Below, piece after piece: positions 44,327 to 45,303 of a stretch of 64,000 bases of DNA. The translations under genes and the position numbers were made by a program. The stretch spans positions 21,935 through 85,934 of the forward strand of contig CAVFNI010000007.1 of assembly GCA_963624045.1 (NCBI GenBank), read 5' to 3'. Below the pieces are notes generated by a model. It was not told the origin of the DNA and searched no databases. It saw only the letters and a program-made list of their open reading frames with translations. The DNA comes from Bacteroidaceae bacterium (GTDB taxonomy: Bacteria; Bacillota_I; Bacilli_A; RFN20; CAG-826). Position 1 is the stretch's first letter, and every line of letters starts with the position of its first letter.

Positions 44327-44771
44327 AATAACAAAAAAACTATTTAGTGTCAATTTTGAAAAGGATTTAGATGACGGCGAAGTATCTAATGCTTATGAAA
44401 GCATGGCTGAGGAATTGATAAAAAACAACAAGTGGTCTGATGTTTATGCTTCTTGGTTTTACTATCTTGTCAACAATTGCAAGACAGAAGAAGAAGTTCT
44501 AAATTTTGCTAATCTCTTTTGGTTCTACGAAGGCTATAAACATTTCATTCCAAACGCAGTGGAGTTTTGTGCTTTTTTCTATGCCAATATATCATTTGAC
44601 AATTATCCTGATGCCGCAGAAATATTAGATAGCATTACTTGTGAAGTATTTTTGAATTCCGGAATATATCCAAGCGCATCTCTTCGTTACGACGAATATA
44701 TTCCGGCGAACGATCCTAAGATAAAAAAAGCCATCTACAAATGGAAGGAGAAAGGTTATGGATTGTGTTAA
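44310..44771 (+). CDS. Hypothetical 153-aa acidic, aromatic-rich protein, immunity/antitoxin-like
   Basis: GGAGGAAG SD, and a 17-nt overlap with the upstream ORF. The composition looks helical, and I recognise no motifs. Confidence 0.35.
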   Translation: MTTINEITKKLFSVNFEKDLDDGEVSNAYESMAEELIKNNKWSDVYASWFYYLVNNCKTEEEVLNFANLFWFYEGYKHFIPNAVEFCAFFYANISFDNYPDAAEILDSITCEVFLNSGIYPSASLRYDEYIPANDPKIKKAIYKWKEKGYGLC

Positions 44772-45303
44772 ATTATCGAAAGAAGTTTCATATGCATTAA
44801 GGCACGCGCCATGGGAATACGAGCTTGAACTCGATGAGAACGGATTCGTTCCGGTAGAGCAATTGCTACATTCCCTGAATTCGTTAAATAAATATGGCAG
44901 AGATGTTACGAAGGAAGATCTTGAATACATTATTGCTAATTCCGACAAGAAGAGGCACGAAATCGTTGGAGACAAAATCAGAGCCTTATACGGCCATTCA
45001 GTCCCAAATAAAATTGAAAAAGTGCCTTCAATTCCGCCTGATGTCCTATATCATGGGACAGCCAAAAGATTCCTCGATTCCATAATGAAGGATGGCTTGC
45101 TTCCCATGAAGAGACAATACGTTCATCTTAGCGTTGATATGGATACGGCAACGGTGGTCGGGAAGAGAAGAGATGGCGACCCCATAATTCTTGAGATTGA
45201 TGCCAAGGCTGCATCTGACGATGGAATCGCGTTCTATATTGGAAACGACAAGGTGTGGATGTGTGACAAGTTGCCGGCGAAATACATTAAAATTCCTAAA
45301 TGA
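44758..45303 (+). CDS. kptA: RNA 2'-phosphotransferase, KptA/Tpt1 family
   Basis: [46 protein letters not shown] and RQYVHLS are Tpt1 hallmarks, including the Arg/His catalytic positions. Length is 181 aa. It overlaps the upstream ORF by 14 nt. Confidence 0.85.
   Translation: [181 protein letters not shown]

Follow-up and report, generated by a model that had tools for sequence, protein, structure and literature searches.

We analysed a stretch of 64,000 nucleotides (hereafter the window) from contig CAVFNI010000007.1 of GenBank assembly GCA_963624045.1 (GTDB genus CAG-826), positions 21,935 to 85,934 of the forward strand, with the focus on a gene for a KptA/Tpt1 RNA 2'-phosphotransferase and on the small genes in front of it. 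The KptA gene is the last of five genes, designated A to E below and all located on the + strand, that occupy an AT-rich insertion of 3.1 kb between a sigH-like gene and rpmG-secE-nusG. The insertion and its edges comprise the following features.

42149-42179, + strand: intrinsic terminator of the sigH-like gene (8-bp GC-rich stem followed by a T run), left edge of the insertion
42254-42961, + strand: gene A, remnant of a STAND nucleoside triphosphatase/helix-turn-helix (HTH) regulator, matching nSTAND3 (PF20720, E 6e-8) and with a capH-like C-terminus
42973-42988 and 43049-43064, no strand: two copies of the palindrome TATTTTC(T/G)AAAAATAC (repeat family D11, inverted repeat I4)
43144-43800, + strand: gene B, DUF4417 protein (PF14386, E 3.2e-53, profile positions 3-182 of 183)
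43793-44326, + strand: gene C, predicted toxin of an unmodelled polymorphic-toxin family (177 residues, basic, isoelectric point 9.3)
44310-44771, + strand: gene D, immunity-type protein, translationally coupled to C (153 residues, acidic, isoelectric point 4.5)
44758-45303, + strand: gene E, KptA/Tpt1 RNA 2'-phosphotransferase (181 residues, ATG to TGA, intact), final gene of the cassette
45358-45386, + strand: promoter of rpmG-secE-nusG (TTGACA-17-TATTAT), right edge of the insertion

The KptA gene carries a Shine-Dalgarno sequence (AAGGAG) 8 nt upstream of its start, and its product matched the Pfam model PF01885 (PTS_2-RNA) over the full length (E 1.9e-42, 145.8 bits against a cut-off of 26, profile positions 4-176 of 177) as well as PHROG 5470, 'RNA 2'-phosphotransferase' (E 4e-52). 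With the NCBIfam equivalog models it reached 190.6 bits, under their strict cut-off of 231 bits. The closest solved relative is Tpt1 of Clostridium thermocellum (CthTpt1; 6E3A, E 2.6e-64, residues 2-178), in which the catalytic Arg-His-Arg-Arg tetrad consists of R18, H19, R68 and R121 (PMC8120803). These residues align with R15, H16, R66 and R119 of the window KptA, in which H80 and H99 supply the H-H pair of the NAD+ site. An earlier interpretation of the window made from its letters (hereafter the sequence-only reading) had named a set of Tpt1 hallmarks for this gene, all of which were found, and had considered that the catalytic residues might turn out inactive on alignment; the tetrad is intact in the window protein and invariant in 46/46 aligned cassette-linked KptAs. 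As judged from the alignment, the window gene encodes a full-length KptA/Tpt1 with all catalytic residues. It is the sole KptA gene of this genome of 1.5 Mb in 36 contigs.

For gene C no match was obtained in Pfam, NCBIfam, PHROG or PADLOC. Its 149 close homologues, all about 170 residues long, are likewise devoid of any Pfam model, and a C profile search of 1.84 billion representatives yielded 1303 clusters. In long proteins the C domain forms the C-terminal tip, with RHS-repeat (P0152, P0246), CdiA (P0272, P0274, P0279) and eCIS_core proteins as carriers; the CdiA carriers, for example in Pragia fontium, possess TPS/PT-VENN domains. Because the same domain tips Rhs, CdiA and extracellular contractile injection system (eCIS) proteins, C is assigned as a genuine polymorphic-toxin domain, and these genomic criteria support the earlier proposal that the open reading frames upstream of KptA form a toxin/immunity pair. 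On the window protein itself no trafficking or secretion domain was found, its 177 residues including only a disordered MGSG leader. Residues R92, PHPTLIGG (with H104 and T106), AG and SGH(F/Y)(K/R)P (with S135 and H137) are invariant in the family, whose members also share the MGSG leader. An AlphaFold2 model of C (pLDDT 81) gave nothing below E 1e-3 in Foldseek searches against PDB and BFVD, and the C profile found no match among PDB sequences even at E 10. A status as RNase, ADP-ribosyltransferase, kinase or 2H enzyme was not assignable to C from the fold and profile searches, and its single HxT motif is suggestive only.

We then compiled a C-centred set by running the C profile against one genome per GTDB species; 172 hits were obtained, of which 79 loci from about ten phyla were kept. 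The gene following C encodes an immunity-type protein in 73/79 of these loci, namely a D homologue in 65 and another protein of ~125 residues, I2, in eight. D itself had no family match in the searched profile libraries. In Rhs and contact-dependent growth inhibition (CDI) loci with a C tip, the next gene encodes a DUF6960 protein, and our own hidden Markov model (HMM) links I2 to those DUF6960-labelled CdiI/RhsI proteins with E-values of 1e-14 to 1e-21; Pfam did not recover DUF6960 directly on the ~125-residue I2 proteins. On this profile evidence, I2 is a second, DUF6960-like immunity family for C that is unrelated to D. Tandem or orphan copies of D are present in five loci (L045, L048, L093, L117, L169). 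Comparison of the window with a cassette of the same five genes in a congener (G015) revealed identities of 88% for DUF4417 and 83% for KptA, next to 40% for C and 31% for D, which is read as the classic pattern of a toxin-immunity pair swap between conserved flanks.

By tblastn, 34/79 loci (one of them with a KptA fragment) had KptA no more than 7 kb from C on either side; the HMM search found it in 33/73 loci. The KptA-linked loci belong to Bacillota, Bacteroidota, Actinomycetota, Fibrobacterota, Spirochaetota, Planctomycetota, Lentisphaerota, Pseudomonadota and Myxococcota. Many of the loci lie on contigs of metagenome-assembled genomes (MAGs) that are cut near the cassette, and the linkage of 45% is therefore probably a lower bound. 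KptA accompanies C in 26/65 D-type and in 7/8 I2-type loci, and the contig of the eighth I2 locus stops right after I2. With regard to placement, 19 loci have KptA immediately downstream in the same orientation, often with an overlap with the immunity gene, 3 have it convergent, and 11 have it in a divergent operon (L037-L059, L098; e.g. L038 1790-3487). In the latter an operon of genes for an XRE-family HTH protein, an IrrE-type M78 peptidase and KptA diverges from DUF4417-C-D, and an ImmR/ImmA-like switch of XRE-HTH and M78 proteins, as deduced from this gene order, stands in for the STAND regulator. Among five Rhs/CDI loci with a C tip, KptA adjoins the immunity gene in one, the CdiA-CT(C)/CdiI locus of Pragia fontium.

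As a control, 40 DUF4417 loci were taken from 400 genomes of a phylum sample in which one bacterial class dominates; 37 of them carry other cargo than C. KptA was found within ±5 kb in 0/37 of these other-cargo cassettes. The difference from the C loci gives a Fisher p of 8e-8, a value which is descriptive only, the loci being kin and not independent. Background KptA was found in only 17/401 genomes of the phylum sample. Within the genus of the window, KptA is present in 6/61 genomes plus two remnants, and each copy lies beside cassette genes; three of these eight copies are decayed, one being frameshifted (L118) and two truncated remnants (L119 and L120). Sampled homologues with 66-71% identity to the window KptA occur in DUF4417-C-I2-KptA cassettes (L165, L167, L168) and as toxin-less I2-KptA pairs (L161-163, L166). 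The sequence-only reading had envisaged that KptA might stand beside these neighbours by chance, with no conserved linkage; given its recurrence across phyla, its absence from other-cargo cassettes and the exclusively cassette-borne copies of the genus, the linkage of KptA to C is not a matter of chance.

A KptA tree contains two deep clades (support 100/99), each of which mixes non-cassette and cassette-linked KptAs from several phyla. The window KptA groups with other copies located downstream of D, in the CthTpt1-like clade. In the toxin C tree the presence of KptA requires at least 10 changes on well-supported branches, and both KptA clades are found on both toxin C subfamilies.

DUF4417 genes are present in 75/79 loci of the C-centred set. 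In the control loci (L121-L160) as well as in the window (at 43793), the gene at or overlapping the DUF4417 stop codon nearly always starts with Met-Gly and a Gly/Ser/Arg-rich stretch (MGGRGA.., MGSRGAF.., MGTGK.., MGSGISG..), while the rest of the ~125-170-residue protein varies. In one locus (L017) the place of C, following a second DUF4417 gene, is taken by an EndoU_bacteria toxin whose leader is of the same kind. DUF4417 thus looks like a constant partner of interchangeable small toxins with a common N-terminal glycine leader, and the shared leader hints at processing, tethering or export via this segment. An AlphaFold2 model of the DUF4417 protein (pLDDT 91) found only weak TIM-barrel-like structure matches (PdxJ, TM-score 0.44), too little to name an activity. 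In a Mogibacterium MAG (L042 4823-5712) genes for a second small protein with an MGSG leader (165 residues) and for a Zn-ribbon-like protein of 131 residues were found upstream of the DUF4417 gene; therefore, toxin-like pairs can also precede DUF4417.

Gene A is read as a shortened regulator gene. Its residues 1-123 correspond to residues 2-124, and its residues 116-231 to residues 1115-1230, of a 1230-residue protein of G015 (L009 5130-8822), which served as the full-length STAND comparator. From this alignment, an in-frame deletion appears to have removed about 990 central residues and joined the P-loop N-terminus to the C-terminal HTH-like domain. The Walker A/B motifs and the HTH are retained; the helical and sensor domains that follow the P-loop module in nSTAND3 proteins are missing, with just the first ~123 residues remaining. 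What remains could act constitutively as a regulator or have lost its function altogether. Both palindromes lie in the spacer between A and B, just upstream of a TATAAT box that precedes the DUF4417 gene, and the motif is invariant across six cassettes. The pair is a candidate operator/promoter for the toxin operon, with the STAND-HTH protein as the factor that probably binds it.

The insertion as a whole is compact. The overlaps amount to 8 nt for DUF4417/C, 17 nt for C/D and 14 nt for D/KptA, the last one, already reported in the sequence-only reading, being confirmed by the upstream stop at 44771, and each of the genes B to E has a GGAGG-type ribosome-binding site. No terminator was found after KptA. 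The GC content of 0.387, compared with about 0.45 in both flanks, agrees with the earlier description as an AT-rich island. The flanks consist of core genes, with cysS, rlmB and the sigH-like gene on the left and rpmG, secE and nusG on the right. The cassettes of G015 and G053 become similar to the window ~30 nt to the right of the sigH-like terminator, from a conserved -10-like GCTAYAAT onwards. In relatives the island is missing and rpmG directly follows the sigH-like gene with a gap of 130-300 nt. In G015 the same five genes, with the full-length STAND protein, have another location, with rsmI and a yfhO-like gene as neighbours, and the cassette is therefore regarded as mobile, in line with its initial characterization as mobile-looking. 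Target-site duplications or terminal repeats were sought at the island ends and none was convincing; no integrase, transposase or recombinase gene was found within the island. PADLOC-DB 2.0 made no defence-system call for the cassette and none for DUF4417, C, D or KptA, the STAND remnant giving weak matches only (mad8, E 6e-7; capH). Taken together, a horizontally mobile conflict cassette composed of a STAND regulator, DUF4417, toxin C, immunity protein D and KptA is the best explanation for the island.

Some further observations concern the surroundings. Between nusG and rplK-rplA (46465-48800), genes for an ArsR-type repressor and for a P-type ATPase with a CPC motif were found; this pair, assigned to heavy-metal efflux by sequence motifs only, looks like another accessory insertion into the conserved run of genes that also harbours the cassette. 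Rfam detected no RNA family at 15000-50000 of the window. A GC-rich, AT-skewed stretch at 16-25 kb turned out to be merely the ribosomal-protein operon, and genetic code 4 was considered and dismissed, the cassette genes ending in TGA.

How KptA might contribute to such a cassette is indicated by loci in which the toxin is gone. Arrays of the type D-D-KptA without a toxin gene, with an intact KptA as the final gene, are present in G041 (L169) and G056 (L117), and a Prevotella MAG (L093) contains an array consisting of a C remnant, three D genes and an intact KptA. Among the profile hits examined, KptA was never fused to an Rhs, CdiA or eCIS carrier. The occurrence of KptA in toxin-less arrays, in unfused form, together with regulators and constant during pair swaps fits an enzyme that acts on the effect of the toxin family and not on the toxin protein. 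Two roles had been proposed for KptA in the sequence-only reading, a repair or antidote enzyme and an effector. The former fits the genomic evidence better, KptA being intact in orphan-immunity arrays and ~83% identical where C and D were swapped; the latter fits it less well.

We therefore favour, with a probability of about 50%, the reading that KptA acts catalytically as a second, facultative line of protection or repair against the toxin family as a whole. Most likely, C would be a metal-independent RNA phosphotransferase or RNase, and the 2'(3')-phosphate ends of its products would prevent their re-use or repair. A less likely possibility is that C installs an internal 2'-phosphate or makes a 2'-phospho-metabolite. 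The two invariant His, one Arg and the Ser/Thr of C would suit metal-independent phosphoryl transfer on RNA. D would serve as the cognate, binding-type immunity protein of C, while KptA, with NAD+, would take off the 2'-phosphate left on RNA by C-type toxins and, as a member of the CthTpt1-like clade, may also strip terminal 2'/3'-phosphate. In this way KptA would heal damage not prevented by the stoichiometric immunity protein or caused by non-cognate C-type toxins that neighbours deliver. A stricter version, according to which C-family toxins kill via an RNA 2'-phosphate, either terminal or internal, and the cassette KptA is a broad-spectrum enzymatic immunity factor that erases this mark with NAD+, is put forward tentatively. 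The chemistry has precedents, since CthTpt1 removes internal 2'-PO4 and also terminal 2'- and 3'-PO4 with NAD+ (PMC6573784), and Tpt1 erases the tRNA 2'-phosphate written by Ark1 in archaea and can remove the 2'-phosphate of NADP(H) (PMC10622864). No RtcB or 2H/LigT-type match was detected in the genome, and for this reason end-healing, for example restoration of a 3' end for extension, is favoured over ligation-coupled repair.

Several observations weigh against this reading. Of the 17 background KptAs of the phylum sample, none has C, D, I2 or DUF4417 within ±6 kb; the link therefore runs from toxin to KptA and is not universal for KptA, which clearly has other roles. Over half of the standalone cassettes, and 4/5 of the Rhs/CDI loci examined, have no KptA, which is therefore not required for immunity. 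In a Clostridium argentinense MAG (L164 1-1716), a KptA with 69% identity to that of the window directly follows a colicin/pyocin-type DNase tip and its Colicin_Pyocin immunity gene; because of this exception KptA may be a general cargo of toxin islands. The counts overstate independence, because the loci are related by descent and many of them are MAG contigs. Moreover, C has no recognisable fold or family in profile and structure searches, and we infer both its RNA target and its 2'-phosphate product.

The alternative that survives best is that KptA belongs to the general cargo of conflict and defence islands, as a repair enzyme linked to RNA ends or NAD. It could offset attack by RNases of phage-defence or competing systems at large, or serve the regulation of the cassette, without any chemical relation specific to C. 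The cassettes do sit among restriction-modification and other defence genes, KptA belongs to the XRE-HTH/M78 regulatory operon and not to the toxin operon in the 11 divergent loci, and the homologue beside the colicin-DNase pair (L164) speaks for this explanation as well. Yet a general cargo should also have turned up in the 37 other-cargo DUF4417 cassettes, which lie in similar islands, and it would hardly account for two KptA lineages and two immunity families converging on the same toxin domain or for the 19 loci in which KptA is tightly coupled in translation to the preceding immunity gene. We consider this explanation unlikely, though worth keeping in mind.

An effector or co-effector role appears improbable. 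KptA would then modify the 5'-phosphorylated ends of nucleic acids by capping or ADP-ribosylation, use up NAD+, or assist C through a preparatory or signalling step. This proposal draws on the in vitro activity of Tpt1 enzymes including CthTpt1, which ADP-ribosylate 5'-PO4 RNA and DNA ends (PMC6573784; PMC8120803), and KptA/Tpt1-like toxins were the subject of speculation in a 2025 paper (PMC11833690). However, neither a delivery domain nor a macro, ARH or NADAR antidote gene was found in the cassettes examined, KptA was not seen as a fusion to Rhs, CdiA or eCIS carriers among the hits examined, loci that have lost the toxin still keep an intact copy next to orphan immunity genes, and in 11 loci KptA would be expressed from the regulator operon. 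Equally poor is the case for mere hitch-hiking, that is, capture of KptA once or a few times beside cassettes and its spread without a contributing function: KptA is dispensable in most cassettes, and many linked copies within each KptA clade are close relatives spread by horizontal transfer, but at least two deep KptA lineages in three gene arrangements, at least 10 gains or losses on the toxin tree, strict retention of the tetrad in all 46 copies, and the fact that unused copies do decay (L118-L120), with catalytic residues lost in decayed copies only, stand against it, and repeated association combined with purifying selection speaks for a functional connection.

The reading of KptA as a second line of protection bears on an old question, as the role of Tpt1 has been called 'obscure' in taxa without a fungal-type tRNA ligase (PMC6573784, PMC10622864), and the operon contexts of bacterial KptA known from reviews comprise only Thg1 and NAD/ADP-ribose genes (PMC8120803). 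A full-text literature search (DUF4417; KptA/Tpt1 with toxin, immunity or polymorphic toxins) found no account of the KptA linkage seen here. The specific and repeatedly evolved link of KptA to one polymorphic-toxin domain makes the role of Tpt1 experimentally approachable; if the stricter version of the reading is true, bacterial Tpt1 would gain its first natural substrate and C would define a new toxin chemistry. The analysis has also brought to light an abundant unmodelled toxin family, its DUF6960-like second immunity family, and DUF4417 as a constant toxin partner.

With polymorphic toxins of the Rhs, CdiA-CT/CdiI and eCIS type (PMC3482391) the cassette shares the toxin domain, the adjacent small immunity gene, pair swapping and orphan immunity arrays. 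In contrast to these systems, the window toxin is a stand-alone protein of 177 residues, preceded by DUF4417 and linked to KptA; the 2012 survey of polymorphic toxins (Zhang et al., PMC3482391) mentions neither the C family nor DUF4417 nor KptA.

An enzymatic layer of immunity has several parallels, such as the ADP-ribosylhydrolase Tri1 acting against Tre1, DarG against DarT, and small alarmone hydrolases against tRNA-pyrophosphorylating toxSAS. With these systems the cassette would share the logic of a catalytic eraser beside the toxin, which works family-wide and independently of cognate binding; Tre1 and DarT are both listed in PMC8120803. Unlike in those pairs, the eraser of the cassette would be encoded by a separate, facultative third gene that comes on top of an immunity protein of the binding type, and here modification and reversal are proposed only.

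The archaeal Ark1/Tpt1 pair (PMC10622864) is a precedent for an enzyme-installed RNA 2'-phosphate as a natural Tpt1 substrate outside tRNA splicing. Toxin C differs from the Ark1 kinase in that it lacks the features of a kinase or P-loop protein and resembles no solved structure, and the setting is conflict instead of tRNA stabilisation. Finally, the window KptA shares the two-domain length, the tetrad and the H-H motif with Tpt1/KptA enzymes such as C. thermocellum Tpt1 (PDB 6E3A/6EDE), E. coli KptA and yeast Tpt1, but unlike housekeeping or splicing-linked members of the family, it is the cargo of a mobile toxin-immunity cassette.

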